Shown: positions 11,358 through 33,491 of the stretch, piece by piece | Layout: each line of letters begins with the position of its first letter | How positions within the stretch are numbered: the first letter of the stretch is position 1 | Assembly: GCA_965223665.1 (NCBI GenBank) | Contig: OZ245011.1 | Location: 896,001 to 960,000, forward strand | Length of the DNA: 64,000 nt | Reading direction: 5' to 3' | Source: Nitrospinaceae bacterium | GTDB taxonomy: Bacteria; Nitrospinota; Nitrospinia; Nitrospinales; Nitrospinaceae | The notes under the pieces: model-generated | Database searches by the model: none | Seen by the model: only the letters and a program-made list of their open reading frames with translations | What the model was told of the DNA's origin: nothing | Position numbers and translations under genes: made by a program

Positions 11358-14907
<3,550 letters not shown>

Positions 14908-15184
14908 GAGGGAATCTCTCAGATCTTTTAATCAATAAAAACAGCGAATTAAAATTTATCCTTTGGGAAAAATTTGATTTCGATAACTGTCTGGGTAGCA
15001 TTTTAAATGTTTGTAGAATCAATATTGGTGATCTAAGGTTGGCCAACTTTTCCAATATTAATCTCCTAGCCAACTTAAGTCAAGGTGTACTCACAAGGAT
15101 GAAACCATTAAATTTTTTTAAATTTGAGTGTATTAATTTTTTGGTGTTTTATAAAAGTCTTAAAAGATTGACTTTAATGCATTG

Positions 15185-15200
15185 TGTTAGAATCCTAACA
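15185..15200. promoter_or_regulatory. Perfect 16-bp palindrome TGTTAG-AATC-CTAACA overlapping a putative extended -10 (TGtTAGAAT) and the cyclase start codon
   Basis: Read directly from the sequence. It has the TGT-N10-ACA geometry of Crp-family operators. No Shine-Dalgarno is visible before ATG 15200. Confidence 0.45.
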
Positions 15201-17428
15201 TGAAAACTCGTTGGTTAAATGCTTTCACAGTATCTATTGCGATTTCCCTCAGCTTAATTTTTGTATATTCCCTCGATCTTACATTTATTAAACTTCTAGA
15301 ACTTAAAGCATACGATTTTAAAATGTCCTTGAGAGGAAAACGACCTGTATCCGACAAAATAGTAATTGTCGCAATTGATGAGCATAGCTTACAACAAGAG
15401 GGACGGTGGCCCTGGCCGCGTACCCGTCTTGCAAATCTAGTTAACAAATTAACTAAATTTGATGCGACAGTAATCGGGTTAGATATCCTATTTCCAGAAA
15501 AAGACATTTACATTCCACTAGACGAAGTGATACGCGAGATAAAAAAAAAAGATCTCACAAAAATTAGTCGTAGCGAAGCTGTAAGTTGGTTAAAGCAAAT
15601 AAGTAATTCGGATGGCAAATTTGCTGAAGCAATTCTTCAGTCGAACCGTTTGGTAATGGGTTATTTTATTTATTCAACAGCCCAACAGGCAAAAAAATCA
15701 GCTAGAATGATGGGACCAAGAGAATTGGAGCTACTAGATTCTTCACAATATTCCATAGTCAATTTCAACAATAATTCTCAGGTTTTTGATTTTCTTCATC
15801 CTATTTTTGCTGTAGGTCTCAACATTCCATCTTTGATGAAAGTTGCCAAAAGAGCTGGTAGTCTTCACTTTATGCCAGATCGAGACGGAATTCTAAGGTT
15901 TATTCCCATGGTCCAGGCATACAAAAATGTTTTATTTCCCCCGTTCAGTTTACAAATTTTAAAAGAAGCTACTAATTGGAATACCACCATCGATATTTTT
16001 TCTGACCACGTTGCAGAAATCCAATTGGGAGATATACCCATTCCAGTTACAGAGAAGGGAGATTTTCTCATCAATTATTACGGACCGAGTCAAACCTTTA
16101 CTTACATATCCGCCTCCGACGTAATAAATGAAAGGGTGGATCCAACAACATTAAAGAATAAAATAGTACTCGTTGGCGCCACCGCAACTGCTCTCCCGGA
16201 CCTTCACAGCACTCCTTTCGACCCCTTGTATCCTGGGGTTGAGGTGCATGCAACCGTTATGGAAAATATTCTAAACCAAGATTTTTTGCAACGTCCACCT
16301 TGGATTCGTCTCTTGACCTTAATAATGGTTTTAATTACCGGGGTGCTTCTAGGTTGGGCTTCTCTTCATTTTAAAGCTTTTGGCACATCCATAATTTTAC
16401 TTTTTGGAATTGGGGGATATTTAGTTACAGACTACGTGCTTTTTACTCAGAAGGGGCTGTGGGTTTATACCGTGTATCCTGTGTTCTCTCAATTTCTTAT
16501 ATTTTCAGGAGTTACCCTATATCGATTCATTTTTGAAGAACGTGAAAAGCGTTTTATTAAAGGTGCATTCAGCCATTATTTAGCACCAACGGTGGTCAAC
16601 CAACTGGTGGAAAACCCAAAACTCCTTAAATTAGGCGGAGAACGTAAAGTGCTCACAGCTTTTTTTTCTGATGTGGCTGGGTTTTCTTCAATTTCAGAAA
16701 AAATGGAAGCAGAAGAATTGGTAGATTTGCTAAATGTTTATTTAACGGACATGACAGAAATAATTTTGAAATATGAAGGTACGGTAGACAAGTATGAAGG
16801 TGATGCAATCATTGCTTTTTTTGGAGCTCCTATTGCTTTTGAAGATCATGCCACCCGAACCTGTTTAGCAGCCATGGATATGCAAAAAAGACTGGCTGAG
16901 TTGCGGGATATTTGGAAAAAAGAAGGTCTTCCCGAAATGTTTATGCGTATCGGTATCAATACAGGGCCAATGGTGGTGGGTAATATGGGATCAATTAACC
17001 GTATGGATTACACTATGATGGGAGATTCAGTAAATTTAGCGGCACGGTTGGAAGGCGTCAACAAACAATATAAAACATATACAATGATCAGCGAGTATAC
17101 TTACGAGTTAGCAAAAAACAATATAGAAACCCGTGAATTGGATTCCATTCGAGTTGTAGGAAGACAGGAACCACTAAAAATCTATGAAGTATTGGGTAAA
17201 AAAGGTGAAATAAATGATTTTATACATCCCATTTTGCCTTACTTTAAAGAAGGCTTGAATCATTATAAAAATTTAAGGTGGGAAAGAGCTATCGAATCTT
17301 TCCAAACAGCATTAAACCTTTATGAAAACGATGGACCTTCAATGACTTATTACGAAAGGTGCATTACCTTCCAAAAACATCCCCCACCCTCTGACTGGGA
17401 TGGAGTATTTGATATGCCATCCAAATAA
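15200..17428 (+). CDS. CHASE2-domain membrane class III adenylate cyclase
   Basis: N-terminal TM, CHASE2 (IVIVAIDEHSL..GRWPWPR, IGLDILF, YPGVEVHA), three further TMs, cyclase domain (FFSDVAGFS, DKYEGDAI, MRIGINTG, DYTMMGDSVNLAARLEG) and a TPR-like tail ending DWDGVF. Confidence 0.93.
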   Translation: MKTRWLNAFTVSIAISLSLIFVYSLDLTFIKLLELKAYDFKMSLRGKRPVSDKIVIVAIDEHSLQQEGRWPWPRTRLANLVNKLTKFDATVIGLDILFPEKDIYIPLDEVIREIKKKDLTKISRSEAVSWLKQISNSDGKFAEAILQSNRLVMGYFIYSTAQQAKKSARMMGPRELELLDSSQYSIVNFNNNSQVFDFLHPIFAVGLNIPSLMKVAKRAGSLHFMPDRDGILRFIPMVQAYKNVLFPPFSLQILKEATNWNTTIDIFSDHVAEIQLGDIPIPVTEKGDFLINYYGPSQTFTYISASDVINERVDPTTLKNKIVLVGATATALPDLHSTPFDPLYPGVEVHATVMENILNQDFLQRPPWIRLLTLIMVLITGVLLGWASLHFKAFGTSIILLFGIGGYLVTDYVLFTQKGLWVYTVYPVFSQFLIFSGVTLYRFIFEEREKRFIKGAFSHYLAPTVVNQLVENPKLLKLGGERKVLTAFFSDVAGFSSISEKMEAEELVDLLNVYLTDMTEIILKYEGTVDKYEGDAIIAFFGAPIAFEDHATRTCLAAMDMQKRLAELRDIWKKEGLPEMFMRIGINTGPMVVGNMGSINRMDYTMMGDSVNLAARLEGVNKQYKTYTMISEYTYELAKNNIETRELDSIRVVGRQEPLKIYEVLGKKGEINDFIHPILPYFKEGLNHYKNLRWERAIESFQTALNLYENDGPSMTYYERCITFQKHPPPSDWDGVFDMPSK

Positions 17429-17501
17429 TTGAGAAGATTATTAGTAAATAGAAATTTTACGAAATAAAAACAAATTGAAAAAAGAAAGAATCAGGACAAT
17501 T

Positions 17502-18152
17502 CTAGCTCAAAATTCCTTGCTTATATGCATAACGAATTAATTGTGCGTTACTACTCAAGTTCATTTTTTTAAGTATCCGGGTTCTATAAGTACTAATGGT
17601 GGAAGCACTGAGTGAAAGTTCAACAGAAATATCATTTACAGATTTACCCAGAGCAATAAGACGAAATACCTCAAATTCCCTGGAAGAAAGGTTTTTATGA
17701 GGCGGTTTTCCATTGAATACTATTTCATTAATTGCAATCACATTGGCAAGATTAGGACTGATATATTTTTCTCCTTGAACCACTTGCCGTATGGCTTCAA
17801 CAATTAATTCCATAGAGCTTACTTTCTCCAAATAACCTGATGCACCTTCCTGAAAACACAATTTCGCACTGTCTTCTTCAGGAGAAGCACTAAATACGAT
17901 AATTGGAAGGTTCGGATATTCAATTTTTAACTGACGCATAACGTCCCAACCATTTTTTTCTGGCATATCTAAATCCAGGAGAACTATATCCAATTCCAAC
18001 ATTCGAGTTTGTTCTAATAACTCTATTCCATTTTTCACTTTCTTTACCACGGTCATATCCGAAATTTGGGACAGTATTTGCGCCAATCCTTCCCTAACGA
18101 CTTCATGGTCGTCAGCAATAATTATTCGGATTTTTTCCTTTTGGGCTACCAT
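17502..18152 (-). CDS. NarL/FixJ-family (UvrY/GacA-like) response regulator, REC + LuxR HTH
   Basis: IIIADDHEVVREGL, LLDLDMP, LSSREFEVFRLIALGKS...TISTYRTRILKKM. Confidence 0.92.
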   Translation of the reverse strand: MVAQKEKIRIIIADDHEVVREGLAQILSQISDMTVVKKVKNGIELLEQTRMLELDIVLLDLDMPEKNGWDVMRQLKIEYPNLPIIVFSASPEEDSAKLCFQEGASGYLEKVSSMELIVEAIRQVVQGEKYISPNLANVIAINEIVFNGKPPHKNLSSREFEVFRLIALGKSVNDISVELSLSASTISTYRTRILKKMNLSSNAQLIRYAYKQGILS

Positions 18153-18807
18153 AAAAACTTCAAAAAAAACGAAAGATTTTCTTTTTTCTTATCGTTAAAT
18201 GTTTAAGAATGTGTTCCGATCAAATTCTCCATAATCCCGTTATTATAGAAAAAGGTACCATAATTCGCATGACTTGCAACGAAATAACGCCTTATTTGAC
18301 TTATTTTAGACGGTTAATAAATAATTGAAATTAACATCTCAATCCCAAAATATTCACCACTATAAAACTATTTCAAAGAAGCCTGAATTCTATAAATCAC
18401 AACCATAATCCCAAAAATTATTTAAAATTTTTTAATTCCTTTCTGAGCAAATACAACAGTAGTTAATTCCATGTCGCTATTTCAACGACAAAATTTTCAC
18501 AACTCCTGTGACAAGACAAAACATTTTTTATTGATTATATTTAGACCTAGAATCTTCAATAAATTTTTTAATTGAAGAAAAAGATTAGTAGGTAGTTTGA
18601 GTTTTAGGACGGGTTATCCAAACCTGGCAAATCAAACAAGCCTTGGTTTGAACGAAATTAAATTCCTTAAGACAAACTACCGTCAGCTTTGACATAGGAG
18701 GGATTAAAAATGTTATTAGAAACTATAAATCTAGCAAACCATCGCAGGGATCAAAAGTTTTCTATAGCACTCCTTTTGAAAACGCAAAGGAAGAATTTAA
18801 TAAACCT

Positions 18808-20496
18808 TTGGACACTATAAATGCAATGGAACTATTACAAGAATCAAAAGTATCCTATCAGACACTTCTTGATAATTCTTTCGATGCCATTATTTCAATT
18901 GATGCTGAAGGGCTAATCAAGGTATGGAATCATCGTGCAGAATCAATGTTTGGTTGGAAAGCAGAAGAAGTTATTGGTAAAGCTCTCACCCAAACGATCA
19001 TTCCACCTTCTTTTCATGAAGCGCATACTAAAGGCTTAAAAAACTTTTTAGCAAAAAATGAAAGTCGAGTTCTAAATCAAAAGTTGGAATTAACAGCAAT
19101 TCACCGAAAAGGAAATGAGTTTCCAATCGAAATATTCATTTGGGCAACTTACATAAGAAACAAAGTTTCTTTTACGGCCCTTATAAAAGACATAACTGAA
19201 AATAAAAACTTTCAGAAGGAAATGCGTCTTAAAAATGCAGAATATAAAGTACTGCACCAGGTGGCTCAAGTTCTTCAAAATTCAAAATCAATGGAAGAAA
19301 TGTTACACCATGCAATGGAAGTAATCAGCCAAAGCAAGGAACTACATGTAGAAAACAAAGCCGGAGTTTTTCTTGTGGATGAGGAAAAAAATGTACTGCG
19401 ACTCGCTTCTACCTTAGGAAATTTTCCAAAGGGTTTTCTGGAAAACCAGGCCGAGATTCCTTTTTACAATGTTCCCTATGGACGTTGCTATAGTACTGGA
19501 GAGATCCAAATCAAAGATTATTGCCAATTTAAACCTCATCGATTAGGTCCATTTGGAAATTTAGCCAATTATGGTACTTACATTATCCCCCTTAAAAGCA
19601 AAGCTAAAGTTGTGGGTATATTGTTTCTTTATACTCCAGAAACACCACCTTGTTATGAAGGTAGTACTGAAATTTTGATGTCAATCGGTTCCCTTATGGG
19701 CAATGCGATTCAACAAAGGAAATATGAAAAGAAAATTCATGAACAAAATAAAAAATTAAACAAACTCAATGAATTAAAAAACAAATTTCTTGGAATTGCT
19801 TAACACGATCTTCGAAGTCCCCTATTCGTAATTTTATCTTATAGCCGTATTCTTGCCGATGGATCCAAAGGCCAAATTAATGACCAGCAACTTTCTTTAA
19901 TTCAAAAAATAATAAATTCTGGTGAATATATGTGTGATTTATTGGGAAACTTATTGGACGTTTCAAAAATTGAAAGTGGCCAATATTTTTTAAATAAATC
20001 CGCACACAATATAAATGCTCTTGCATTTGAGGAAGTTGAAAAATTTCAACATGTCGCAAAAGAAAAAAATATTGAACTTCATTTTGAGAAAATGGATTCA
20101 CCCAACTTGATGGTGGACGTATGCTCCATAATCCAGGTAATGGATAATTTCATTGGAAATGCCATTAAATTTTCTCCTAAAAATACAAAAGTCTTCATCA
20201 AAACAGAAAATTTGAAAAGCTGGTTTCGATTCTCTGTGAAAGATCAGGGACCTGGAATTTCAGAAGAAAATAAAAAATTAGCTTTTAAAGAATTCCAAAC
20301 TTTAGGAAATAAACCCACTGGTGGGGAGAAATCGACCGGCCTGGGATTGGCTATTTCCAGGAAAATAATTCAACTGCATGAAGGCCAAGTTGGAATTATT
20401 TCCGAGATTGGAAAAGGGAGTACTTTTTACTTTGACCTACCAATCCTTAGAAAGGTCAACACGGAAGACGGTCAAACATTGATTAAAAATGACTAG
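18808..20496 (+). pseudogene. PAS-GAF-HisKA-HATPase sensor histidine kinase interrupted by an in-frame TAA at 19801-19803
   Basis: ORFs 18808..19803 and 19930..20496 share a frame. Read-through gives KFLGIA*HDLRSPL (H-box), then NFIGNAIKF, DQGPGI, STGLGL, GKGSTF. It could be a true nonsense allele or a sequence error. Confidence 0.8.
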
Positions 20497-20636
20497 TTTT
20501 TATTTAATTGTAGAAAGGTATCAACCTTTCAAAAATAGAATTTTTAAACTCTCAAAATAGAGAGAAGTCGATTTGAAAGATAGTATTACAATCTTACAAA
20601 AAGGCTAATTCACAACCCAAATGAAGGAGAATAAAA

Positions 20637-21059
20637 ATGTCAATTTTAGAAAACATTTCAGGAACCCATGGAAAAATTTTAATTGTAGATGATGACACAG
20701 AAATTAGAGATATCGTCAAATCGCAACTAATTGAAGGAGGTTATCAGGTACTGGAAGCCAAAGATGGAGAAGAGGCGATTAACCTTATGAAACAGGGATC
20801 AAATTTGCTCCGAGTGGGTTTGATTATCTGTGACATTCGTATGCCAAAAGTAAATGGTATCGAGGCTATTGATTATATAAAAGAAAATGCACCGTCTATT
20901 CCTATCATGGTGCTTACCGGATATCCAGATACTTATTTGGCATTATCCTTATTGAAAAAAGGAATTAAAGAATATGAGATTAAACCGGTTGAAAAAGATC
21001 GATTACTTGAAAAGGTACGAACTCTACTTGCTGCTAAACAAGATTTTAATTATGTCTAG
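20637..21059 (+). CDS. Single-domain response regulator (receiver)
   Basis: ILIVDDD, IICDIRMP, VLTGY, IKPV, with an AAGGAG RBS. Confidence 0.9.
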   Translation: MSILENISGTHGKILIVDDDTEIRDIVKSQLIEGGYQVLEAKDGEEAINLMKQGSNLLRVGLIICDIRMPKVNGIEAIDYIKENAPSIPIMVLTGYPDTYLALSLLKKGIKEYEIKPVEKDRLLEKVRTLLAAKQDFNYV

Positions 21060-21068
21060 TTTAAAAAT

Positions 21069-21110
21069 TCTCCCCCTTTTCTATAAGTTTCAACATAAAA
21101 AAGGGGGAGA
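21069..21110 (+). terminator. Inverted repeat, probable terminator after the receiver gene
   Basis: TCTCCCCCTTTT (21069-21080) pairs with AAAAGGGGGAGA (21099-21110). Confidence 0.6.
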
Positions 21111-21559
21111 CCAGAAAAAAATAATTTTGTAATTAAATAAATTATCTTTCTTAAAAATTTTTACTACATAATTCTGTATCGCAAAGAGAATTGCAATAAA
21201 TATTTCTTATGATCTAGCTCAAGTGACCGAGGAACATATCGAAAGAAGGATAATAAAATAATTTTTTATAAATGGTTTTATAAACACAGCGGACCAGAGC
21301 AAATGTTTACTAGTTTTTTACAAGCATGGTTAAAGAGAACTTCCAAAATACCCCAATTAGGCGTTGGAAAATTTTTCACCTTTGCCGAAAAAAATATGCT
21401 ATTGTTGGCAAAGATTTTCCAGTGGAAGCAAAATATGCGCCGCAAGAATGTTTTGCTCCAAAGTTTAATTGTTTTACCAGGAAACTACTATGCAGTAAAA
21501 AAACTCGAGGCGTTTGCTCACTGATTTTGCAAAAACCGCCTTATCTGGGAGGGTGGGTG

Positions 21560-24500
21560 ATGAGAAACTACAGCGGACACCTAATTCATTTTCAAATATT
21601 CTTATACCTGACAATCTTTGGATTTTATCCTCATGTTTCATTTGCTGCGAAATGCGAAAAGCCTATTGCCAAAATTGTATCGGCACAAGGAAGCGTAGAG
21701 GTACAACACGTTGGAAATGCAGATTGGAAACCAGTTGTATTAAATGAAACTTTTTGCCCGGGAGATAAGCTTCGTACAGATCCAAAAAGTCGTGCTGAAA
21801 TTGCGCTGGATAAATCTATTCTTCGCCTGAACGCCAATACCCTCCTTACCCTTAAAAATGTAAAGGAAAATAATACTGCCCTGATCGATTTACTTAAAGG
21901 AATCGCTTATTTTTTCAGTCTTGCCCCCAAAAGCCTCGAAGTCACAACTCCCTTTGCCATAGCTGCAGTCCGAGGCACAGAATTTCTGATAACTGTTACC
22001 CTCCAAAAAACTTTAATCACGATTTATGCCGGTAAAGTGTTTGCTTCCAATTCTAATGGATCCCTCATTTTGAAAAATGGGCAATCTGCTATCGCTGAAA
22101 GTGGTCAAGCTCCTGTTTTGCAGGTAAGACTGCGTCCACAAGACGCCGTTGCCTGGACTTTGTATTATCCACCAGTTATTAATATTCAAACTGAAGGTTA
22201 TCCGGAAGCAATCCGGCAATCGATTCAATATTATCAAAAGGGAAATATTAAAGGAGCATTTGACAGTATTGAAAACGCACCTGAGTTTCAGGATCCCAAG
22301 CTTTTAAACTATTTGGCGTCTCTAGAACTATCTGTCGGCCAGGTAGAAGCCGCCAACAAATACATTCAGAAAACCTTAAGCATTGACCCTAAAAATAGCG
22401 AAGGGTTGGCACTGCAATCAATCATTGCTTTGACTCAAAATAATAAAGAAGAAGCTTTAAGCAAAGCCAAACAGGCTGTTCAAGCCAACTCCCAATCTGC
22501 AACGGCGCAGATCGCTTTATCATATGCCCATCAGGCCAGGTTTGATATGAATAGCGCTCTGGCCAGTGGTCTAAAAGCCGTTGAACTGGAACCGCAAAAT
22601 GCACTGGCCTGGGCACGCCTTGCAGAACTCTGGTCGGCCAAGGGCTATCAAAAGAAAGCTCTGGAAGCAGCCCAAAAAGCGGTTTCGCTAAACCCAAACC
22701 TGGCAAGAACGCAAACGGTTCTTGGATTTGCTCATCTTACAAATGAAGATACCTCCAGTGCTCGCACCGCTTTCCAAAAAGCCATCGAACTGGATCAGGC
22801 AGACCCTCTTCCCAAATTGGGTCAAGGCATGGCTAAAATTCGAGACGGTGAACTGGAGGAAGGACGAAAAAATATTGAAGAAGCGGTCAACCTGGATCCA
22901 AACAATTCCCTGATGCGCAGCTATCTGGGAAAAGCATACTACGATGAAAAACGCAGTGTCAAAGCATTAGAGCAGTTCAGTATTGCTAAAAAGCAGGATC
23001 CCAAAGACCCAACTCCCCTTTTCTACAGCGCTATTGAAAAGCAAACCACCAACCGACCGGTGGAAGCATTGCACGATTTGCAAAAAGCAATCGATTTGAA
23101 CAATAATCGAGCACCGTTCCGGTCCCAGTTGTTAATGGACAAGGATCTCGCTTCTCGTAGTTCTGCCGTAGGGCGCATTTATACCGATCTAAATTTCCAG
23201 AATCGGGCCTTATTAGAGGGTTGGTTATCACTCGCTACAGACCCTACTAATTTTTCTGCCCATCGTCTTTTAGCAGACTCATACTCTATTTTACCGCGAC
23301 ATGAAATTGCCCGAGTCAGCGAACTGCTTCAGTCACAACTTTTGCAACTTGTTAACATGACCCCCATACAACCGCGCCTGGGGGAAAGTAATTTATTACT
23401 CATCAGTTCTGGTGGTCCGGGGGCCTTGTCCTTTAACGAGCTCAATCCCCTGTTCCAAAGCAATGGTATCACTTTCCAGGGAAATGGGATTGCCGGGGAA
23501 AACGATACCTACTCTGGCGAAGGCATCATTTCGGGAATTTTTGGAAAAGCTTCCTTCAGTGTAGGATACAGCAAATTTGATACCAACGGTTGGCGCCCAA
23601 ATGCAGACCAGGAAGATGACATTGTCAACGTTTTTACACAATTTCAGATTTCTCACCTTACAAGCGTACAATTTGAATACAGGTTCCGCGAGACTGTACA
23701 AGGAGATATTGTACAAAGGTTTTTTTCCTCAGACTTTCAGGCAACCTTAAGGAATAAAGATACAACAAATACAGCTCGCTTGGGTTTTCATCATGTATTC
23801 ATGCCTGGATTGGATGTTATTGGTAATTTTTCTTATCAAAATATGGATCGAGAATTGAAAGATCCATTTTTTTCAGTTGAACTCATGGGCAAAGATAAAT
23901 CTCTCGGTGGTGAGCTCCAAATGCTATTCAGGTCGAAATATATTAATATGGTGACCGGTGGAGGGTTCTTCTACATAAATATCAAAGAAACTTTTACCTT
24001 TACCCCCTTTCCACCCGAAATTTCGGATTTTACTCAGAAACATTCCAATTTTTATTTATATTCCTATATTAAAATATTAAAGAATTTAACCCTCACTATT
24101 GGAGGTAGCGGTGATTTCTTTAACACGGACAATCCCATGGCAAAGGATAAAAACCAATTTAATCCTAAGATTGGGGTCGTTTGGGAACCGCTCAAAGGAA
24201 CTACTATTCGTGGCGCCTGGTTTAGAGTCCTAAAGAGAACTTTGGTAGCTCAACAAACCATTGAACCGACTCAGATCGCCGGATTCAACCAGTTTTTTGA
24301 TGAACTTAATGGAACTGACTATTGGGTACGCGGAGTTGGTATTGATCAAAAATTCACTAAAAGTTTTTACGGTGGAATACAATTCACTGAGAAAGATTTG
24401 GATGTTCCTATTCTGTTTAGTTTCCCTCCAGCCCTGCCACAGCTAAATATTTTCTCCTGGGAAGAAAAACAAGCTCGCGCTTATTTATTTTGGACGCCGC

Positions 24501-24904
24501 ATCAATGGGTATCTCTATCTGCAGAATGGATTTGGGAACGCCTGGACAGGGAATCACTACTCAATTTAAATGTCCGAGCTTTAGAAACCCATTATTTTCC
24601 AATGAAGGTTAATTTTTTCCACCCTTGCGGGTTAAGCCTTTCCATCAAAGAAACCTATGTGAATCAAAAAGGCACTTTTAATCGATTGACTGCACTACCG
24701 GGAGTCCTTACCCCTGGAAAAGATAGTTTTTGGTTAACTGATATCGCCATCAAATATCGTTTTCCAAAGCGATATGGATTTCTGACCGCGGGGGCCACTA
24801 ATTTGTTTGACGAAAGCTTTCAGCACTTTGACCCGGATTTAAATAACACACGTATACAACCAGTCCGGGCTTTTTTTATTTCAGTGACACTAACAATTCC
24901 ATAA
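21560..24904 (+). CDS. Outer-membrane FecR-TPR-beta-barrel protein (NsrA-like architecture)
   Basis: ATG 21560 follows GGAGGG and begins a signal peptide (..HVSFA/AKC), so it is preferred over ATG 21326. FecR-like domain (SAQGSVEV..CPGDKLRT..VTTPFAIAAVRGTEF), many TPRs, and a C-terminal amphipathic beta-strand region with a TonB-receptor-like end (GATNLFD...RAFFISVTLTIP). Confidence 0.85.
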   Translation: MRNYSGHLIHFQIFLYLTIFGFYPHVSFAAKCEKPIAKIVSAQGSVEVQHVGNADWKPVVLNETFCPGDKLRTDPKSRAEIALDKSILRLNANTLLTLKNVKENNTALIDLLKGIAYFFSLAPKSLEVTTPFAIAAVRGTEFLITVTLQKTLITIYAGKVFASNSNGSLILKNGQSAIAESGQAPVLQVRLRPQDAVAWTLYYPPVINIQTEGYPEAIRQSIQYYQKGNIKGAFDSIENAPEFQDPKLLNYLASLELSVGQVEAANKYIQKTLSIDPKNSEGLALQSIIALTQNNKEEALSKAKQAVQANSQSATAQIALSYAHQARFDMNSALASGLKAVELEPQNALAWARLAELWSAKGYQKKALEAAQKAVSLNPNLARTQTVLGFAHLTNEDTSSARTAFQKAIELDQADPLPKLGQGMAKIRDGELEEGRKNIEEAVNLDPNNSLMRSYLGKAYYDEKRSVKALEQFSIAKKQDPKDPTPLFYSAIEKQTTNRPVEALHDLQKAIDLNNNRAPFRSQLLMDKDLASRSSAVGRIYTDLNFQNRALLEGWLSLATDPTNFSAHRLLADSYSILPRHEIARVSELLQSQLLQLVNMTPIQPRLGESNLLLISSGGPGALSFNELNPLFQSNGITFQGNGIAGENDTYSGEGIISGIFGKASFSVGYSKFDTNGWRPNADQEDDIVNVFTQFQISHLTSVQFEYRFRETVQGDIVQRFFSSDFQATLRNKDTTNTARLGFHHVFMPGLDVIGNFSYQNMDRELKDPFFSVELMGKDKSLGGELQMLFRSKYINMVTGGGFFYINIKETFTFTPFPPEISDFTQKHSNFYLYSYIKILKNLTLTIGGSGDFFNTDNPMAKDKNQFNPKIGVVWEPLKGTTIRGAWFRVLKRTLVAQQTIEPTQIAGFNQFFDELNGTDYWVRGVGIDQKFTKSFYGGIQFTEKDLDVPILFSFPPALPQLNIFSWEEKQARAYLFWTPHQWVSLSAEWIWERLDRESLLNLNVRALETHYFPMKVNFFHPCGLSLSIKETYVNQKGTFNRLTALPGVLTPGKDSFWLTDIAIKYRFPKRYGFLTAGATNLFDESFQHFDPDLNNTRIQPVRAFFISVTLTIP

Positions 24905-24965
24905 AAACTTGAATTGTTAGAATCTGGAAAGATTATAATCGAAACCATTCTGAGGAGGGCTAAAT

Positions 24966-25601
24966 ATGCTTAACAAATCAAAGGAAAAAGTACCTAAGTT
25001 AATAATTAAGTTAATTTTAATGATTTATTTTACCATTTCATTTTCCGCTTGCACAAAGACAATACCAAACTATGAGCATCCTATTCCTGATACCACTCGA
25101 ATACCCACTCGAATAAATAAAACTATTGAATTCAAAGGAAAAGGAGAAAAAGAAAGTAAAGTAATATGCACCCAAGTAGATCCAAAAACTCAATGTGAGA
25201 TACAAGTCCCCTGCCAAACAGGAGAAAAAGTAGAAACGAAAACTCTCGCAGAAGTTTTAGGCGTGGACAAAGCAATAGTTGATATTGAAAATCATGCTTG
25301 TGCAACATTTAGCCTGGATCTAGGTCACCAAAAAAATCCTTATTATTGTTCCGGAGGTTTTTGTAGGTGGTCACCATCTGACAGAAGATTAAAGAACAAT
25401 ATCCATAAAATTGGGCAATTGAAAAATGGTCTCAATATCTATAAATTTAAATATATTTGGGATGATGCCTGGAGGGTGGGAGTAATGGCAGATGAGGTAC
25501 GTAAAGTTTTACCCGAAGCCGTGATTACCATCAATGGATACGATCTCGTGGATTATTCAAAAATCAAAATTGACTATTCTGCAATTACAGATGATCAATA
25601 A
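24966..25601 (+). CDS. Cys-rich putative lipoprotein (cassette A) fused to a C-terminal peptidase S74-type intramolecular chaperone domain
   Basis: GAGGAGG RBS, hydrophobic signal with lipobox FSAC, six-Cys domain paralogous to 25957..26451. From 25377 it reads SDRRLKNNIHKIG...IYKFKY...GVMADEV...PEAV...GYDLVDYSKI. Confidence 0.8.
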   Translation: MLNKSKEKVPKLIIKLILMIYFTISFSACTKTIPNYEHPIPDTTRIPTRINKTIEFKGKGEKESKVICTQVDPKTQCEIQVPCQTGEKVETKTLAEVLGVDKAIVDIENHACATFSLDLGHQKNPYYCSGGFCRWSPSDRRLKNNIHKIGQLKNGLNIYKFKYIWDDAWRVGVMADEVRKVLPEAVITINGYDLVDYSKIKIDYSAITDDQ

Positions 25602-25626
25602 AATGCAAATTTCATAATTCTGTATT

Positions 25627-25654
25627 AAGGCAGGGTCTTTTTGGACCCTGCCTT
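25627..25654 (+). terminator. Rho-independent terminator after cassette A
   Basis: AAGGCAGGGTC-TTTTTG-GACCCTGCCTT, a perfect 11-bp stem. Confidence 0.8.
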
Positions 25655-25956
25655 CTTCATTTATGAACATTTGGATAAATAATTTACCTGTATTTTTTTT
25701 AGAATATGGAATGAACCTTCATCATCAACTTCCTAGAAATATTTACCAATCCATTTGCCTCTTTTAATAATTTTCTTAAATTTTTTTCTGCATTTAAATC
25801 AGCAATGATGTTTTAATAACTTGTCTCCTTGTTCAGGATCTAGGAAAAAGTGAATTTAGCAAATCAGGATTAAAATAGTGTAACTATTGATAATGTATTG
25901 AGATGTTTTTGAACAAGAAATTTTTATCGAATCAAACCAAATGAGGAGGGATAAAT

Positions 25957-26451
25957 ATGCTTTACAAATCTAGAGCACCCATCACCATCATAATGATTAA
26001 AACTTTTGCACTTGTTTATTTTATTATTTACTTTTCTGGAATTGCAAATTCCAATGAGATTCAGCAGGGTCTGGACACCACCCGAATACCTACCAAAATT
26101 AAAAAAACAATAAAATTTTTTGATAACAAAGAAAAAGCAAGAACAATGGAAAGTTTTGGAAATGAAAGAATAGCTAGCACATCAGAAAATTCTGACGCCA
26201 CCCCGGATACCAGCAAAACAGTGTGCACGGAAGTGGATCCAAAGACTCAATGTGAAATTGCAATACCTTGTGGATCGGAAGAAGAATTAGAAAAATTTTC
26301 GCTGGCGGAAATCTTGGGAATGGGAAAGGCTAATATCATCATTCCTGGTCAAACTTGTGCAACCTTTATTCTTGATATTGATCACCCCAAAACTCCCTGG
26401 TATTGTTCAGGAGGAATTTGCACTTTGTATGGTTCAGGCAATTCTGGATGA
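25957..26451 (+). CDS. Secreted six-Cys protein (cassette B), paralog of cassette A without the S74 domain
   Basis: GAGGAGG RBS, signal peptide, DTTRIPT motif and the same C-x8-C-x5-C-x28-C-x15-C-x4-C spacing as cassette A. Confidence 0.8.
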   Translation: MLYKSRAPITIIMIKTFALVYFIIYFSGIANSNEIQQGLDTTRIPTKIKKTIKFFDNKEKARTMESFGNERIASTSENSDATPDTSKTVCTEVDPKTQCEIAIPCGSEEELEKFSLAEILGMGKANIIIPGQTCATFILDIDHPKTPWYCSGGICTLYGSGNSG

Positions 26452-26503
26452 AGAACTTGATATCTCTAAAATTGGAAAGTATTAAGATTTTGAATAAAAT
26501 ATA

Positions 26504-26536
26504 AAGAAGGCCGGGTAATTTTTTCTCGGCCGTCTT
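26504..26536 (+). terminator. Imperfect hairpin after cassette B, related to the cassette A and D terminators
   Basis: AAGAAGGCCGGG...CTCGGCCGTCTT around a T-rich loop. Confidence 0.5.
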
Positions 26537-27143
26537 GGCTTTGAGAAATATATTAGAGGATTATACCGTTTTTCATGCCTCTTTAATTCTTACCAAATGT
26601 GACATTCCAATTTTTCCTAAGGAAAAAAAATTCTCTACATTCTCATTTTCAGAGTTTCTTGCCAAAGATTTTCTTGTCCCAAATTTTATTCTCCCTTCTA
26701 AACTCCACCCTTCCCCAAAATTCATTCTTTATTTTCTGACCAAAGGACAACTGACAATTGCTTACCTTTGTCGTAGAACCCCTAAAACACAAAAAACTAC
26801 ATTTTTTGGTTGTATTTTACCAGGTTTATAGTATATTCCGTTTAACTAAATTTTTGGTTTATTAAACTTCTAACCTTTGGTGTTTTATACATGAAAACTA
26901 ATTAAAGCCTTAAGTTTAACCAAAACGAGAAGAGCCCGCCAGAATCAATTGGCTCCTTATTATTACTAAACCAAATAATTTTGGATTATAAAAATTTTGT
27001 CTTCAACGATTTTACCCGTTTTCTTGAAAAACCTCCAAGGGCAAAACCATACGCTCTTAACCAACTAAATCTATTTTTTTATAGGCCTAGTTGAATATAT
27101 ATAAAAAAGCGTTTTATTCAAAACCATTATAGGAGGGCTTAAT

Positions 27144-27638
27144 ATGCTTATCAGGCAAAAAACATATTTCTTAATTGGCTTATGGTTTTTGATGTTGTTT
27201 GTACTTTACGCTACACCCCAAATAGTATTAGCAAAAGAAAAAGGTCAAAAGGAAGAATCTACAAAAAATTTAACTGGCCCATCAGCCAACCGTACTTGCT
27301 TAAACTTGGGAAGAGCCTCTATTTTGGTTTCATTTACAGATGGTTGTCCGAGAGATCCCAAAAAAGTTAAATTTTTCACAGAAACCCAATGCCAAGGAAA
27401 AAGAAAAAATCCGGATATTTTATCAAAGGCTGTGACCGTGTACAGCTCAGGAATCGACACAGGAGGGGTTCTCGAATGTAGGTGGAATGCAAAAGTTTGG
27501 AAAGTCAATCCATACTGGTATGTCTATTCTGCGGGAGGTAATGTAGCTTGCACCTGTTACGATTTCACCAATCCGCTTCCATATACATGCGACCCGGAGG
27601 ATTTAAATAATCCTCCTGCTAATTGTTCAGGAAATTAA
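27144..27638 (+). CDS. Secreted eight-Cys protein (cassette C)
   Basis: AGGAGG RBS, signal peptide (..QIVLA/KE), and a C-terminal 41-aa block homologous to cassette D. Confidence 0.8.
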   Translation: MLIRQKTYFLIGLWFLMLFVLYATPQIVLAKEKGQKEESTKNLTGPSANRTCLNLGRASILVSFTDGCPRDPKKVKFFTETQCQGKRKNPDILSKAVTVYSSGIDTGGVLECRWNAKVWKVNPYWYVYSAGGNVACTCYDFTNPLPYTCDPEDLNNPPANCSGN

Positions 27639-27797
27639 TTAAGTCATGTTTAATTAACATTTAAATATGCAATAGTGATCGAGCCAACAGGTTAGACACA
27701 GTTGCTTCTGGTTCTTCCAGAGTAAAAAGATAATTAATAAACAAGATCTCTTTAAATCTTGCTTGAACAAATTTCCAATGAAGAAAAGGAACGTAAA

Positions 27798-28286
27798 ATG
27801 AATAACAAATATATAAAACCAGCTAAACCATTATTTGTCCAATTAGGCATTATAATCCTCTCAGCCTTGGTATTCCTTGGATCTGATAATGGATCTAATT
27901 TGATTGTTTCCAATACCTGCATTAATTTGGATAGCAATGCATCTGTTTGTATTACTAGAAACGATGATGGAACCCCATCAACTGTAGACTGGTTTCCAAG
28001 AACGGGATGCCCACGTTCACTGGCATGTCCTTCTCTTGATTCTTCTACTGAAAAGAGCAATCTTGCCTTGGGAGATTCCTCGGATATTTTTACTTCCAAA
28101 GAGGAGGGCGAAATTTGCACCGATGGGCACTCTAATGAGTGTCTTGATAAAGAGATATTTAACCCCACCTGGTATCAATATACTGCTGGGGGTAATGCAT
28201 ATTGCAAATGTTATGACTTTACTGCTGCTCCTCCCTATACATGCACACCGGAGCAATTAGCAAATCCTCCCTCTTGGTGTTCATAA
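27798..28286 (+). CDS. Secreted ten-Cys protein (cassette D), paralog of cassette C
   Basis: ATG 27798 follows AAGGA and is preferred over TTG 27759. Hydrophobic N-terminus, and the block NPxWYxYxAGGNxxCxCYDFT...PYTCxPExLxNPPxxCS shared with cassette C. Confidence 0.78.
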   Translation: MNNKYIKPAKPLFVQLGIIILSALVFLGSDNGSNLIVSNTCINLDSNASVCITRNDDGTPSTVDWFPRTGCPRSLACPSLDSSTEKSNLALGDSSDIFTSKEEGEICTDGHSNECLDKEIFNPTWYQYTAGGNAYCKCYDFTAAPPYTCTPEQLANPPSWCS

Positions 28287-28291
28287 TAATT

Positions 28292-28393
28292 ATAGGGGTT
28301 ATGGCAGATGAGGTTAAGAAAGTTAAACCGGAAGCCGTAATTACCATCAATGGATATGATCTCGTGGATTATTCGAAAATCCCATTGAACTAA
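28292..28393 (+). pseudogene. Orphan C-terminal half of a peptidase S74 domain
   Basis: Translates as IGVMADEVKKVKPEAVITINGYDLVDYSKIPLN*. 28301-28381 matches 25485-25565 at 71 of 81 nt by manual alignment. Confidence 0.85.
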
Positions 28394-28438
28394 TCTACTG
28401 GTAAAAATAATCCATTGTTTTTTACTTTTTCTAGTTAT

Positions 28439-28470
28439 AAAGGCAGGGTCTTTTTCGGCCCTGCCTTTTT
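28439..28470. terminator. Terminator (possibly bidirectional), near-copy of the 25627 hairpin
   Basis: AAAGGCAGGGTC-TTTTTC-GGCCCTGCCTTTTT, between convergent genes. Confidence 0.8.
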
Positions 28471-28489
28471 CAAAATTTTTTTGATGAAA

Positions 28490-30880
28490 TTAATTACTTC
28501 GTGGAATGGTAAAGAAAAAGGTGCTCCCCTTCCCTATTTCTGACTTGAACCCGATTTTCCCTTTGTGTCCTTCCTCAATAATTTCCTTGCAGGACATCAG
28601 GCCAAATCCATCACCGTCAGGTTGAGAGGTAAAGTTTTCATTAAACAAAAGTCTTTTGATTTCTTCCGGAATTCCCGTTCCTTTATCCTCAATACGGACC
28701 TCAATAAATTCCTCTAAACCTTCAACAGAAACACAAATTTCAGAATTCTTTTGGGAGGCATAACCTGCGTTGAGTATCATGTTCTGTAGAACTCTTTTAA
28801 TGTCCAATGTGTTTACCGGTCCAATAGAATTAGAATCATTTTCAAGAAGTGTTACTTTTTTATTTTTAATGTCATCATGAAAGCCAATTTCTTCTTTTAC
28901 TTCCTTAACTAAATCAAAAATATCTATTTCTTTTTTTGGATATTCTCGAGTTCCCTTTTGGACACAAGCCAGGCTTTGGTCAATCATTGAAACCATGTTA
29001 TTTTTTACGGAAATCATAACCTCAAGACCTTTTTTGAGTTTATCAAGGCCCTTACGCATATTATGCTGCTCATTGGAACCGGTTAGTTTTTCCAGAGTAT
29101 TTTGAAAATGCATCTTGGAAAACTCCAGAGGCACTAAACAGTTTTTCATGTCGTGAGTAAAGTGACTCAGTTGTTGAACATCATTGGACATTGTATCCAG
29201 GTCATTTCTTAAACGGCGTGAACATACTTTCATCATTTCCAGCAGGGCTTTGGAATTGGACACAATGTATTTGGCAAATAAATCTTTATCGATTTCAATT
29301 ATTAGACCATCGGTTAATGCCACTGCAGAAGCTGACCGAGGCAAATTGTCAATCAAGGAAATTTCTCCAAAATATTCTCCCGGGTTTAGATCCGTAATAA
29401 CTTTTTGGTAGTTTGGCCCCTTACTAATTCTGACTTTTCCACGAAGAAGAATATGAAGATATTGTTCATCCCTGGCCCCTTCCTTTATCAAAACATCCCG
29501 CGCCTTAAGAACCACATCCCTGCTTTCTTTTGCAAGATTTACTTTTGCCTCCAGTGGGAGACAGTCAAAAAGATCAATCTGCTTTAAAAGTTCTAACTTC
29601 CTCGTTATAGCATTATCGTCTGTAATATTGGTTTGTGATAATTGACCGGACTCTTTTTTAGGTTCGGTTCTTATAGATTTGGGCAGGGTGAAACAAAACT
29701 TTGTACCCTTCCCCCAATGAGATTCAAATCCAATTTTTCCATTATGGTATTTTTCAATAATCTCCTTACAGGATATTAAACCTATTCCGTTTCCATCCGG
29801 CTTAGAGGAAAAACTTTCCTTTAAAATAAAGGGTTTAATATCATCCGGAATACCAGAGCCGTTGTCCTCAATACTGATTTCAATTGCATGGTTCATATTT
29901 TTTACAATACAGACTATTTGATCTTTTTTCTGGGTTGCATAACCTGCATTGATGATCAGGTTTTGCAAAACTCTTTTAATATCCAAATAGTTGATTTTCC
30001 CAATGACTTTGGATTCCGGAGATTCCACCCTGAGTGTTTTGTGTTCAAGTTGCTTATGACAGGAAATTTCTTTTACCGTTTCTTTGGCTAAGGCCAATAT
30101 GTCAAAACTATCTTTGACGTATTCTCCCTGCTGTTTTTTAACGCAGGCCAGACTCTGATCGATTAATGTGGTCACATAATCCCGAACTTCTATAATTGTA
30201 TCCACTCCCATTTTCAACTTTTTAAAACCATCCCGCCTTATATGACCTTCTTCAGTCCCATTCATTATTTGCAAAACTTTTTGAAGATAGCTTTCTGAGT
30301 TTTTTAAGGGTAAAAGAACGTTGCGCATGTCATGTGTAAAACAACTCATTTTACGCATGTCTGATTCCATACGGGCTAAGTCATTTCGAATTCTTTGAGC
30401 AAAAACTTTCATCATCGCCACCAAGGCCTTTGAGTTGGAGGCAATATACTTTTGAAAAATTGTCTCATTGATTTCCAGCAATAAGGTATTTTTCATAGAC
30501 TTTACTGAAGCCGAACGGGAATTCGAATCTACTAAAGGCAATTCGCCTACATAATCGCCAGTACTTAAATAGGAAATAATTTTTTTTGATTTAAAAACCA
30601 CCACACGGCCAGTGAGGATAATATACATGGATTTCTGCTGCTCACCTTCCCATTCGAAGAGGATTTCCTCCTCACCCAGGCGCCAAAGGGGACTTTCCTC
30701 TATAATCCTCAGCAAGGTCTCTTTGTTAAAACAATTGAAAAGCTCAATTTTCATCAATTCTTCCAATTCCATTTCTTGAAGTTTCTTTTGCAGTCCCATT
30801 TGTCCAGGATTTGGCGAAACTTTTTTATAAGAATGGATATCAGATACCTGAGTCTTTTTTTCTGGAGAAAAGTTTTTCAT
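28490..30880 (-). CDS. Cytoplasmic tandem [cyclic-nucleotide-binding domain + histidine kinase] x2 protein
   Basis: cNMP cassettes GDYVGELPLVDSNSRSAS and GEYFGEISLIDNLPRSAS, H-boxes FTHDMRN and FTHDMKN, two HATPase domains (NLIINA/DNGSGI/GIGL/GKGT and NMILNA/DKGTGI/GFGL/GKGS). No TM segment seen. Confidence 0.88.
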   Translation of the reverse strand: MKNFSPEKKTQVSDIHSYKKVSPNPGQMGLQKKLQEMELEELMKIELFNCFNKETLLRIIEESPLWRLGEEEILFEWEGEQQKSMYIILTGRVVVFKSKKIISYLSTGDYVGELPLVDSNSRSASVKSMKNTLLLEINETIFQKYIASNSKALVAMMKVFAQRIRNDLARMESDMRKMSCFTHDMRNVLLPLKNSESYLQKVLQIMNGTEEGHIRRDGFKKLKMGVDTIIEVRDYVTTLIDQSLACVKKQQGEYVKDSFDILALAKETVKEISCHKQLEHKTLRVESPESKVIGKINYLDIKRVLQNLIINAGYATQKKDQIVCIVKNMNHAIEISIEDNGSGIPDDIKPFILKESFSSKPDGNGIGLISCKEIIEKYHNGKIGFESHWGKGTKFCFTLPKSIRTEPKKESGQLSQTNITDDNAITRKLELLKQIDLFDCLPLEAKVNLAKESRDVVLKARDVLIKEGARDEQYLHILLRGKVRISKGPNYQKVITDLNPGEYFGEISLIDNLPRSASAVALTDGLIIEIDKDLFAKYIVSNSKALLEMMKVCSRRLRNDLDTMSNDVQQLSHFTHDMKNCLVPLEFSKMHFQNTLEKLTGSNEQHNMRKGLDKLKKGLEVMISVKNNMVSMIDQSLACVQKGTREYPKKEIDIFDLVKEVKEEIGFHDDIKNKKVTLLENDSNSIGPVNTLDIKRVLQNMILNAGYASQKNSEICVSVEGLEEFIEVRIEDKGTGIPEEIKRLLFNENFTSQPDGDGFGLMSCKEIIEEGHKGKIGFKSEIGKGSTFFFTIPRSN

Positions 30881-31387: not shown

Positions 31388-31777
31388 TTAATATTTGCAG
31401 AATATGTCAGGATAAAATACATATACATAATACTCCCCTCTCAATACAGACCCGGACACGTAGGTACGATAACCTTGATGAAGATAATATTTAGATACTT
31501 GGTATGCACGATTTTGCGTTACAAAAGGCCCAAAAACTCTTTTGCATACACCCTGAACTGAAAGAAATGAGGAAGAGGTATCGTAAAAATATCTTTCTCC
31601 TTCATCGCTTCTCACTCTTTCAGTTAATGTATGAGACCTCTTCCCTGAAAGTTTTTGAATGGCATGTTGCTCTTCACCATATACCAGTGGATTCCAAAGG
31701 AATATCAAACTCCCAAAAACCAGCGTATACAATAAAACTAATAAAATATAAATGGATAAATTTGTTTTGGTATTCAT
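31388..31777 (-). CDS. Hypothetical exported or membrane-anchored protein
   Basis: GGAGGGG RBS, long hydrophobic N-terminus, two Cys, aromatic-rich C-terminus. No family recognised. Confidence 0.6.
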   Translation of the reverse strand: MNTKTNLSIYILLVLLYTLVFGSLIFLWNPLVYGEEQHAIQKLSGKRSHTLTERVRSDEGERYFYDTSSSFLSVQGVCKRVFGPFVTQNRAYQVSKYYLHQGYRTYVSGSVLRGEYYVYVFYPDIFCKY

Positions 31778-32090
31778 GACGCCCCTCCGATTGAAAAACT
31801 ATAAATTTTGGCAGTTCTTGATCTCATCTTATTCACTCAATTTTCAAATCATCTTTAATAATCGATCTCAATGATTAATATGGTTCATTTGAGAGAATCC
31901 AGATATCGTTGAAAATATCCTTTTTTTATAGAATTCAAATGGAGACGATGTCATACATTAAATGACTGTTTTGCTTACATCCAAATGATGAGAAACGAGG
32001 AAAATCGGTAAGAAATTGTTAAGAGACGTCCAGGGTCTTACAGGCGAGGTCTTCTATAATCAGCTAATATTAAAAATTAACTTATTGGAA

Positions 32091-33491
32091 TCAGTAGGCA
32101 TGGCGGTTTAAAAATCCCTTCCATAGGGTGAGGGCAAGAATCTTCAAGTCAAAGAGCCAGGACCAATGCTGGATATAATATATGTCATGTTCAATACGTT
32201 TTTGGATGCACGTGTTTCCTCGCCAACCATTTATTTGAGCCCATCCGGTGAGACCCGCCTTCATTTTTAAACGAAAATTATAACTTGGAATTGACTTTTT
32301 GAATTCTTCTACAAAAATAGGTCTTTCAGGACGAGGCCCTACCAAACTCATGTCACCCATTAAAACATTTAACAATTGAGGAAGTTCATCTAAACTTGTC
32401 TTTCTAAGGATCTTCCCAAATCGGGTTGTCCTCATATCGTCTTCGACAGCCCACACTGGACCACAAATTTTTTCTGCTTCTTTCTTCATAGTACGAAACT
32501 TAAAAATCTTAAAAGACTTACCATCCAGGCCCACTCTTTCCTGAATAAAAAATATCGGACCCTTGGAATCGAGTTTAATTAAAACCGCAAGAACTAACAT
32601 TAATGGAAAAGAAACTACCAAGATCAAAAAAGAGCAAATTATGTCCGTCAGACGTTTAAAAAATGAATTCCAACCATATAAAGGACTTTCGTTCAAATTA
32701 ATAATCGGCAATCCATCAAAATCATCCACACCTCCTCTAAGATCCATAAATTTCAATAAATCCGGGACCACCTTAATATCGACCGCAGTATTTCTAATTT
32801 TAGAAATAATATTTTGAATTTGATTATTTGATTTAAATGGAAGTGCAATATATAAATGGTCAACAGCCTTTTCCTGGACCACCTCAGAAATTTCATCCAA
32901 CTTTCCTAATATTTCCATAGCCTTTTTTGTTGGACCCACTGAGGTCTGGTCGGTGACATGTCCCACAACGTTGAAACCCATTTCAGGAAAAACTTCAAAT
33001 TTTCTGGCCAAAGATTGAGCCAATTCTCCGGTCCCTACAATTAAAACATTTCTTAAATTTTTCCCCCTTCGGCGAAAAAACATCAACATTTTTCGAAGCA
33101 TTAAGTGAGTCAAAATCAGGCCCAAACTTATTTGCAGATAAAATAAAATTATGACCCCGCGAGAAATACTTTGCTGTCTGTAGAAAAACAAAATGGCCAA
33201 GAAAATAATTGTGGCCATAGTGGCACCCTTTAAAATATTAAAAAAATCATTCTTTAGTGGTTTCCCTCTTAGGGGTTCATATAATCCAGAAATTTTAAAA
33301 CTGGCTAAATAAATAATAAGAATAGGAATGATTAGGAAACTGTAGGACTCAATGGGAGGCAAACCCATCGTATCGTTAAACCAACCACTAAAAAATCTCA
33401 GATGAAAAGCCAAAAACCAAGACACACAAACAACAATTCCATCACTTAAAACAAGCGCTGATAAAAAAAACTGACTATATTTCTTTAGCAT
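32091..33491 (-). CDS. wcaJ: Undecaprenyl-phosphate glucose phosphotransferase (WcaJ-like)
   Basis: N-terminal TMs, VLIVGTG, KRLTDI, FKFRTM, SLDELPQLLNV..MSLVGPRPERP, GLTGWAQINGWRG. Confidence 0.88.
   Translation of the reverse strand: MLKKYSQFFLSALVLSDGIVVCVSWFLAFHLRFFSGWFNDTMGLPPIESYSFLIIPILIIYLASFKISGLYEPLRGKPLKNDFFNILKGATMATIIFLAILFFYRQQSISRGVIILFYLQISLGLILTHLMLRKMLMFFRRRGKNLRNVLIVGTGELAQSLARKFEVFPEMGFNVVGHVTDQTSVGPTKKAMEILGKLDEISEVVQEKAVDHLYIALPFKSNNQIQNIISKIRNTAVDIKVVPDLLKFMDLRGGVDDFDGLPIINLNESPLYGWNSFFKRLTDIICSFLILVVSFPLMLVLAVLIKLDSKGPIFFIQERVGLDGKSFKIFKFRTMKKEAEKICGPVWAVEDDMRTTRFGKILRKTSLDELPQLLNVLMGDMSLVGPRPERPIFVEEFKKSIPSYNFRLKMKAGLTGWAQINGWRGNTCIQKRIEHDIYYIQHWSWLFDLKILALTLWKGFLNRHAY

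Follow-up and report, generated by a model that had tools for sequence, protein, structure and literature searches.

Background

The closest described relative of the system analysed here is the NsrA-CyaK/CyaD1/CyaD2-Clr pathway of Sinorhizobium meliloti, in which NsrA and the cyclase CyaK are needed to sense a protein, given as a host ribosomal protein, and the regulator Clr is Crp-like (available portions of PMC7529298 and PMC13001267). A cluster with the same domain set is described from Campylobacterota, where a CHASE2 cyclase, a phosphodiesterase, a FecR protein located in the outer membrane and a protein with TPRs were proposed to form a single, horizontally transferred pathway; unlike the locus described below its genes are split, and the part of the report available to us mentions neither a small cysteine-rich partner nor a kinase output (PMC9239204). 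In the Burkholderia BiofilmReg operon a FecR domain, in a LysM-FecR protein, is likewise paired with a CHASE2 sensor, but there is no fusion to a barrel and CHASE2 drives a kinase directly, with no cyclase; the portion of that source that we consulted states that the factors sensed by CHASE2 sensors are not known (PMC5192318). Here we analyse a stretch of 64,000 nucleotides (nt; hereafter the window) from a Nitrospinaceae bacterium (GenBank assembly GCA_965223665.1, contig OZ245011.1, positions 896,001 to 960,000), in which an insertion of about 17 kb codes for a CHASE2 cyclase, a FecR-TPR-barrel protein and, directly behind the latter, four small cysteine-rich proteins that we call s1 to s4. 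With a probability of roughly 45% we read this block as a portable trans-envelope cyclic AMP (cAMP) circuit, similar in kind to NsrA-CyaK and equipped with a recognition partner of its own.

The barrel protein and the cyclase are relatives of NsrA and CyaK

Open reading frame (ORF) and Pfam scans of the window bore out the gene inventory of the initial annotation (cyclase, barrel protein, four small genes, double kinase and two response regulators), and all genes listed here were confirmed at the window coordinates that we give. The barrel protein (ORF 21326..24904, + strand; the start is probably 21557 rather than 21326, since the alignments with homologues begin there) comprises, by Pfam and an AlphaFold model (mean predicted local distance difference test score, pLDDT, 79.6), a FecR domain, TPRs, a short conserved segment and a barrel in which we counted 22 strands. 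The best PDB matches of the model in Foldseek are TonB-dependent transporters, at 10-15% identity. The segment preceding the barrel is short; its residues ~583-636 are conserved and are modelled at low confidence.

We located the nsrA gene of S. meliloti by a plasmid search with tblastn (E = 2e-15; 24% identity over residues 1-515, the FecR/TPR half) and found it directly followed by cyaK. A profile of 39 family members matched NsrA in the FecR, TPR and barrel regions alike, the barrel piece with E = 4e-9 in a two-sequence search. The cyclase gene (15200..17428, +) codes for a CHASE2 domain (Pfam, E = 1e-65), membrane helices and a class III adenylate cyclase domain (Guanylate_cyc, E = 8e-23), with 34% identity to CyaK over 394 amino acids (aa). 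Its residues D491, D535, N612, R616 and K531/T605 are all present, the catalytic roles and the ATP-specifying Lys/Thr pair (K531/T605) being our assignment from class III cyclase motifs. The kinship with NsrA and CyaK suggested earlier is thus upheld by the tblastn match, the family profile and the cyclase identity: by sequence the barrel protein is a distant NsrA homologue, and the cyclase an ATP-type CyaK relative with intact catalytic motifs. We considered a cGMP-making enzyme and rejected it, the relevant residues of the window cyclase being of the ATP type.

The rhizobial system and the window share a FecR-TPR-barrel protein, with homology over its full length, and in both it is encoded near a class III cyclase that carries CHASE2 and has one type of active site. 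The rhizobial system differs in having no small partner gene and, as far as the available portions of the sources describe it, in sensing a host ribosomal protein and in using the Crp-like Clr (PMC7529298, PMC13001267), whereas the window has four partner genes, no Crp domain that we could find and kinases inside the block. The barrel family is large, with 5140 of 8000 scored candidates passing E = 1e-30, and at 36 of the 42 loci with sufficient flank the barrel gene has a CHASE2 or cyclase gene no more than 4.5 kb away.

Several variations on this arrangement were seen alongside. CHASE2 proteins with a phosphatase-like tail stand beside the same barrel in three loci (L016, L019, L067) and large membrane proteins with an EAL-like end in three others (L020, L026, L029), both motifs being recognized by eye. 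A gene resembling class II cAMP phosphodiesterases directly follows the barrel or partner gene in two loci (L018:14856-15635, scanned with Pfam, and L022:5667-6431). One genome (G320, loci L198-L201) carries four barrel copies whose neighbors differ.

A small cysteine-rich protein is encoded behind most barrel genes of the family

To define partners we applied a fixed gene-picking procedure and scored the protein encoded behind the barrel as a partner if it had at most 400 aa, at least 2% cysteine and a cysteine within the last 25 residues. The genome set comprised 81 barrels in 80 loci, of which 11 were dropped as the contig ends within 450 nt, leaving 70 evaluable. Behind these 70 barrels the rule was passed 56 times; behind the 238 long ORFs that served as controls it was passed 46 times (9 times among the 58 controls that are cyclase genes). 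The thresholds were chosen after the genome loci had been viewed, and the controls include spurious frames. Of the held-out metagenome loci, scored with the rule as it stood, 30 of 34 passed (25 of 29 once near-duplicates were removed; the set held 47 loci, 13 of them non-evaluable), and all four misses have a TGA at a cysteine position. The initial annotation had tied barrel, CHASE2 sensor and small cysteine-rich protein together, and the three do co-occur in many phyla, contrary to the refuting case that it had set, an absence of such co-occurrence from other genomes. We consider it very likely that the small partner belongs to the barrel system as a functioning component. Our literature search, which did not extend to the text and supplements of the NsrA paper, found no description of such a partner.

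The partners are hypervariable: 36 of the 73 compared have no relative at E = 0.001. Their types cluster on the barrel tree, as read by eye without a formal test. Grouping by eye also separates partners whose aromatic hairpin is at the mature N-terminus from others that have it at the C-terminus. A short family with the C-terminal hairpin is real by profile search, as 17 of 27 left-out members were recovered at E < 0.001. A single family for all partners with a C-terminal hairpin was tried and is not claimed, since the joint profile is too gappy (s4 E = 0.04, s3 E = 3, s2 E = 12, s1 E = 65). The motif (N/T/S)P-aromatic-GG-C proposed initially is present in all four window proteins, but among the 97 other partners it fits no more than 6, where shuffling would give 0.6. 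A looser C..G..C motif is matched by 37 of 97 partners (13.6 in shuffles) and by none of the four window proteins.

Two partner families and a predicted self-cleaving cap in the window

The proteins s1 to s4 have 164-211 aa, 6-10 cysteines each and hydrophobic N-termini. The four small cysteine-rich genes reported earlier are indeed present behind the barrel; what had been missed is that they form two families, and that a Peptidase_S74 domain stands on s1 and a remnant of one after s4. The pairs are s1/s2 (42% identity) and s3/s4 (30%), with a best cross-pair E of 0.05. The first, s1 (24966..25601, +), is probably a lipoprotein and has a six-cysteine domain ending CSGGxC followed by the S74 domain (E = 1.9e-10, 41.3 bits against a cut-off of 22, at the C-terminal domain) with SDxxxK at residues 138-143; s2 (25957..26451, +) is a secreted paralogue of the same profile family without S74. 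The second pair consists of s3 (27144..27638, +), secreted and with 8 cysteines, and its paralogue s4 (27759..28286, +, start probably 27798), with 10. Behind s4, and out of frame with it, lies a remnant of the 3' half of an S74 domain (28292..28390, +), 35 aa of which align with the tail of s1 at 80% identity; in the DNA there is a 121-nt repeat at 79%. An intrinsic-terminator-like hairpin after s1 (25627..25654, +) recurs at 28440-28467; promoter and terminator counts are at chance level.

Self-cleavage of S74 domains takes place at the SDxxxK serine, and such domains typically cap trimeric adhesive fibres such as phage tailspikes and Bdellovibrio MAT proteins, which, in the part of the source available to us, share with s1 a signal peptide, a variable body and a C-terminal S74 domain with SDxxxK (PMC10769870). 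The s1 body differs in being only ~110 residues long and cysteine-rich rather than long and beta-helical, and most of the s1 family lacks S74. Given cleavage there, s1 would be left with the free C-terminal hairpin end that its relatives without a cap already have. In 24 of 25 aligned family members the last cysteine lies at most 5 residues from the C-terminus or from the S74 SD motif. Three other proteins carry the six-cysteine domain fused to S74 (47-58% identity to s1), and in these the S74 tails are near-identical and the bodies divergent. Outside the s1 family the closest S74 tails, with up to 68% identity, are on four proteins of ~350 aa (P0126-P0129), which resemble phage virion proteins and are a possible source of the cap. 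In a genome with no barrel match (G057), a Gly/Gln-rich linker and an S74 tail are found on an unrelated small secreted protein (L178:146-730).

A profile of the s1/s2 family, run against 1.84 billion proteins, recovered 23, of which two are false matches to long repetitive proteins; in an unbiased test over 120 genomes of the phylum it occurred in two, both times behind the barrel, and among 9401 ORFs of barrel loci it gave two matches, both the first gene behind the barrel. All the s1/s2-type genes that could be placed are in barrel modules: the window has two, and G015, L016, L067 and L199 have one apiece, the last three being known from a search restricted to barrel loci. In L199 (genome G320) the gene lies upstream of the cyclase and not behind the barrel. 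Links of s3/s4 to other partners are weak (G009, E = 0.016; L048, E = 0.07).

Structural and wider searches added little to this. The single-chain AlphaFold model of s1, with a pLDDT of 49, is unusable; a predicted complex between the s1 domain and residues 500-1115 of the barrel protein scored 0.00 twice and, as controls were not folded, carries no weight either way. The ESM Atlas held no usable match for s2 or s3, PDB sequences gave nothing below E = 0.2 with the s1 family, a word-index search with s2 matched only itself, and scanning viral sequences for the s1 family brought up no relative.

Probable selenocysteine in related partners

In nine barrel loci (L101, L103, L105, L107, L113 and L127-L130), all of them on metagenome contigs, the first gene behind the barrel has an in-frame TGA at the position of a hairpin cysteine. 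A stem-loop follows ~10-13 nt downstream in five of the six distinct loci (z = -2.0 to -3.2), with none in L127 (z = -0.3). Five relatives thus probably encode the hairpin cysteine as UGA with a stem-loop, that is as selenocysteine, and would be unannotated selenoproteins. The selA gene is present in 10 of the 10 other barrel-bearing genomes examined; none was found in the genome of the window. Selenocysteine was rejected for the window itself, where s1, s3 and s4 end in TAA, the TGA of s2 lies past its last cysteine and no selA was found.

The double kinase as a candidate reader of cAMP

Behind s4, on the opposite strand, is a gene (28490..30880, -) for a fused kinase with two cyclic nucleoside monophosphate-binding (cNMP) domains and two HATPase domains by Pfam, arranged as two cNMP-HisKA-HATPase units. 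Both G-E..R-S-A cNMP pockets and both His boxes are intact. No Crp helix-turn-helix (HTH) domain (PF13545, PF00325) was found in the genome, which is 98.6% complete (controls detected: 14 of 14 and 9 of 14); cAMP in this organism therefore probably acts through something other than Crp. Among 120 genomes of the phylum the fused double kinase occurs only in the three that bear the barrel. Unfused adjacent kinase pairs are found in four genomes, in three of which they lie 1.1-2.0 kb from a module of ShlB, FecR and TPS-domain genes (in the fourth the contig is too short to judge the neighborhood), and one single-copy cNMP kinase directly follows a CHASE2 cyclase.

We therefore regard the double kinase as a likely reader of this cAMP. 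The earlier suggestion of a kinase rather than Crp as the output is plausible for this genome, which has no Crp HTH, but is not general, as in the wider barrel loci a fused cNMP kinase was found in 1 of 80 against 11 with a Crp-sized cNMP gene. The two response regulators it invoked are present and could equally serve a PAS-GAF kinase that had been missed. A single literature search found no paper on a cAMP-gated histidine kinase.

Other proteins of the genome might also read cAMP, among them a cNMP-PAS-GGDEF-EAL protein (G000:C1:4060459-4062675), a GNAT-like cNMP protein (1534931-1536637 of the same contig) and a metallo-hydrolase-like protein with two cNMP domains (272739-275171), all assigned by eye. 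The same genome has a second module (L009:7398-14736; G000:C1 ~3885400-3892700) with a ShlB/POTRA barrel, FecR, a TPS-domain protein and a CHASE2 cyclase. This cyclase is 57% identical to that of the window, and the module suggests that barrels of more than one type can be fitted with FecR-CHASE2 couplers.

The block is a single insertion

The wcaJ/kdsB overlap junction is present twice in the window, once on each side of the block (14891..14908, -, at the insertion edge, and 32085..32102, -, at the end of the wcaJ-like gene; 15 of 18 nt identical), and is single-copy in two relatives, G001 of the same genus and G015, where the kdsB-like and wcaJ-like flanking genes overlap directly and so mark the empty site. 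With the junction duplicated and these flanking genes overlapping in relatives, the whole block is one insertion of ~17 kb, and the view that it is self-contained is sustained. There is no integrase among the window ORFs of at least 80 aa. The barrel gene occurs in 3 of the 120 genomes of the phylum; the other two are G009 and G015, in which the seven large genes likewise form a group that lies at different sites and has a rearranged order. Public-run contigs cover the cassette without differences, all from one sample of one study that is possibly the source of the window DNA.

The remaining genes of the insertion include a NarL/LuxR-type response regulator (17502..18152, -; Response_reg and GerE), found in the same block in G009 and G015, and a single-domain receiver protein (20637..21059, +; Response_reg, E = 5e-26) that both also retain. 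Between them a PAS-GAF-HisKA-HATPase kinase (18808..20496, +; by Pfam) is split by an in-frame TAA at 19801-19803; it is intact in G009 and G015, and the codon is polymorphic in contigs of three runs from one sample (TCA in X2, TAA in X1 and X3). An ORF call near the other edge (31388..31777, -) gives a protein of 129 aa with a hydrophobic N-terminus and no Pfam match above cut-off, whose first 31 residues resemble a gene elsewhere in the genome (G000:C1:3700875). Just outside the insertion, a protein at 11358-12464 has two Tll0287-like haem-binding domains, and in G015 a CHASE2 sensor fused to a sigma-54 activator (L006:11076-13796) adjoins the block.

A proposed circuit and its alternatives

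Under the portable-circuit reading, the small exported proteins would present at their end an aromatic hairpin closed by a disulfide (probably by selenium in some relatives), which would engage the barrel on its outer face or in its lumen. Within the barrel protein the conserved internal segment and the stack of TPRs may then move the FecR domain, which would contact CHASE2 across the periplasm and so change cyclase activity; the cAMP would be read by the double cNMP kinase and passed to a response regulator. For s1, the S74 cap would trimerise the protein, cut itself off and unmask the hairpin. We infer all the physical contacts, the direction of regulation and the pairing of kinase with regulator. 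That the partner acts as the outside ligand of the barrel we propose tentatively, as a possibility close to an even call.

Several observations weigh against this reading, beginning with the hindsight in the partner rule and the spurious frames among its controls. No small cysteine-rich gene lies behind nsrA itself. Signal peptides are absent from 29 of 98 partners, which a secreted-ligand model leaves unexplained unless these proteins are released by lysis or another route. The strong conservation of the segment after the TPRs (0.90) beside the variability of most long barrel loops (0.31-0.55) speaks for the circuit, but variable long loops are usual in outer-membrane barrels. The hairpin common to the partner families is partly a pattern seen by eye, as the families cannot be joined by sequence: the s1/s2 profile gave no alignment with the short family or with s3/s4 (probability ~1%), and s3/s4 reached a probability of 88% with the short family over 24 columns of a hand-picked alignment. 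On the output side, related or single cNMP kinases are found in 42 of the 120 genomes, and in one genus all 4 of the 4 genomes have a cNMP kinase and lack a CHASE2 cyclase that matches; the three single-copy cNMP kinases examined for it have no CHASE2 neighbor, and the genome of the window has 7 other cNMP-domain proteins and 2 other cyclases.

The alternative that survives best, though we think it rather unlikely, is that the small protein is cargo. Dedicated exported partners are encoded with their outer-membrane barrels in two-partner secretion (TpsB/TpsA) and in Slam/type 11 systems, and the window barrel might in the same way export or display its partner, with FecR-CHASE2 reporting transit or surface capture and the hairpin serving as an export or anchor signal. 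The second module of this genome, with its 57% identical cyclase, indeed has a barrel of a known exporter family (ShlB) with FecR and TPS, and the kinase pair accompanies both module types. Furthermore, Pfam detects no TonB-receptor plug domain in the window barrel, whose pre-barrel segment is short and of low model confidence, and 19 of 69 signal-bearing partners (near-duplicates included) have a lipobox-like motif. Yet the window barrel, with 22 strands and the shape of a TonB receptor, resembles importers and has no ShlB, POTRA or Slam-type Pfam match, unlike TpsB and Slam; partners without a signal peptide could not reach it through Sec, and NsrA functions with no cargo gene.

It is unlikely, too, that the partner is a permanent accessory subunit (a plug, inhibitor or redox switch) setting the off state, with another true signal such as redox, proteolysis or, as in NsrA, a foreign protein. 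The probable selenocysteine at the hairpin in five loci would fit such a role, pointing to redox chemistry or a reduction-proof bridge, and the one-to-one linkage and the clustering on the barrel tree suit a subunit as well as a ligand; a subunit gives little reason, however, for the divergence of the partners, for four copies of two families at one locus or for a trimerising cap that removes itself. Least probable is that the small genes, as products under cAMP control (adhesin-like or antagonistic) or as mere co-residents of the island, have no sensing role, as the typical place of S74 domains on trimeric adhesive fibres (available part of PMC10769870), the separate terminator-like hairpins of s1 and the s4 remnant and the 5 of 70 genome barrels with no partner gene behind them might suggest, for the place directly behind the barrel is kept across many phyla and domain scans found no toxin, immunity or adhesin domain.

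Implications

The portable-circuit reading has a wider form, which we hold to be doubtful. In it the small partners would be widespread polymorphic protein signals, each a hairpin protein released by secretion, S74-timed maturation or lysis and read by the matching barrel only, giving strain-specific sensing of self or damage via cAMP; rhizobial NsrA would be a member that lost its ligand and turned to a host protein, and in the lineage studied here the signal would end in a cAMP-gated kinase instead of Crp. Kin or contact sensing by the block is speculation. The worked example that we found for CHASE2 sensing requires a foreign protein and an outer-membrane receptor, and the small partners are, from sequence, a concrete candidate for what such surface-to-cAMP sensors detect. 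Since the family offers many natural barrel-partner pairs of divergent sequence, binding and specificity could be tested by swaps, for which the window supplies particular handles: one barrel with four partners, a cap whose predicted self-cleavage points to the active end of its partner, and a genome with no detected Crp. A cAMP-gated histidine kinase, if true, would link second-messenger and two-component signalling directly.

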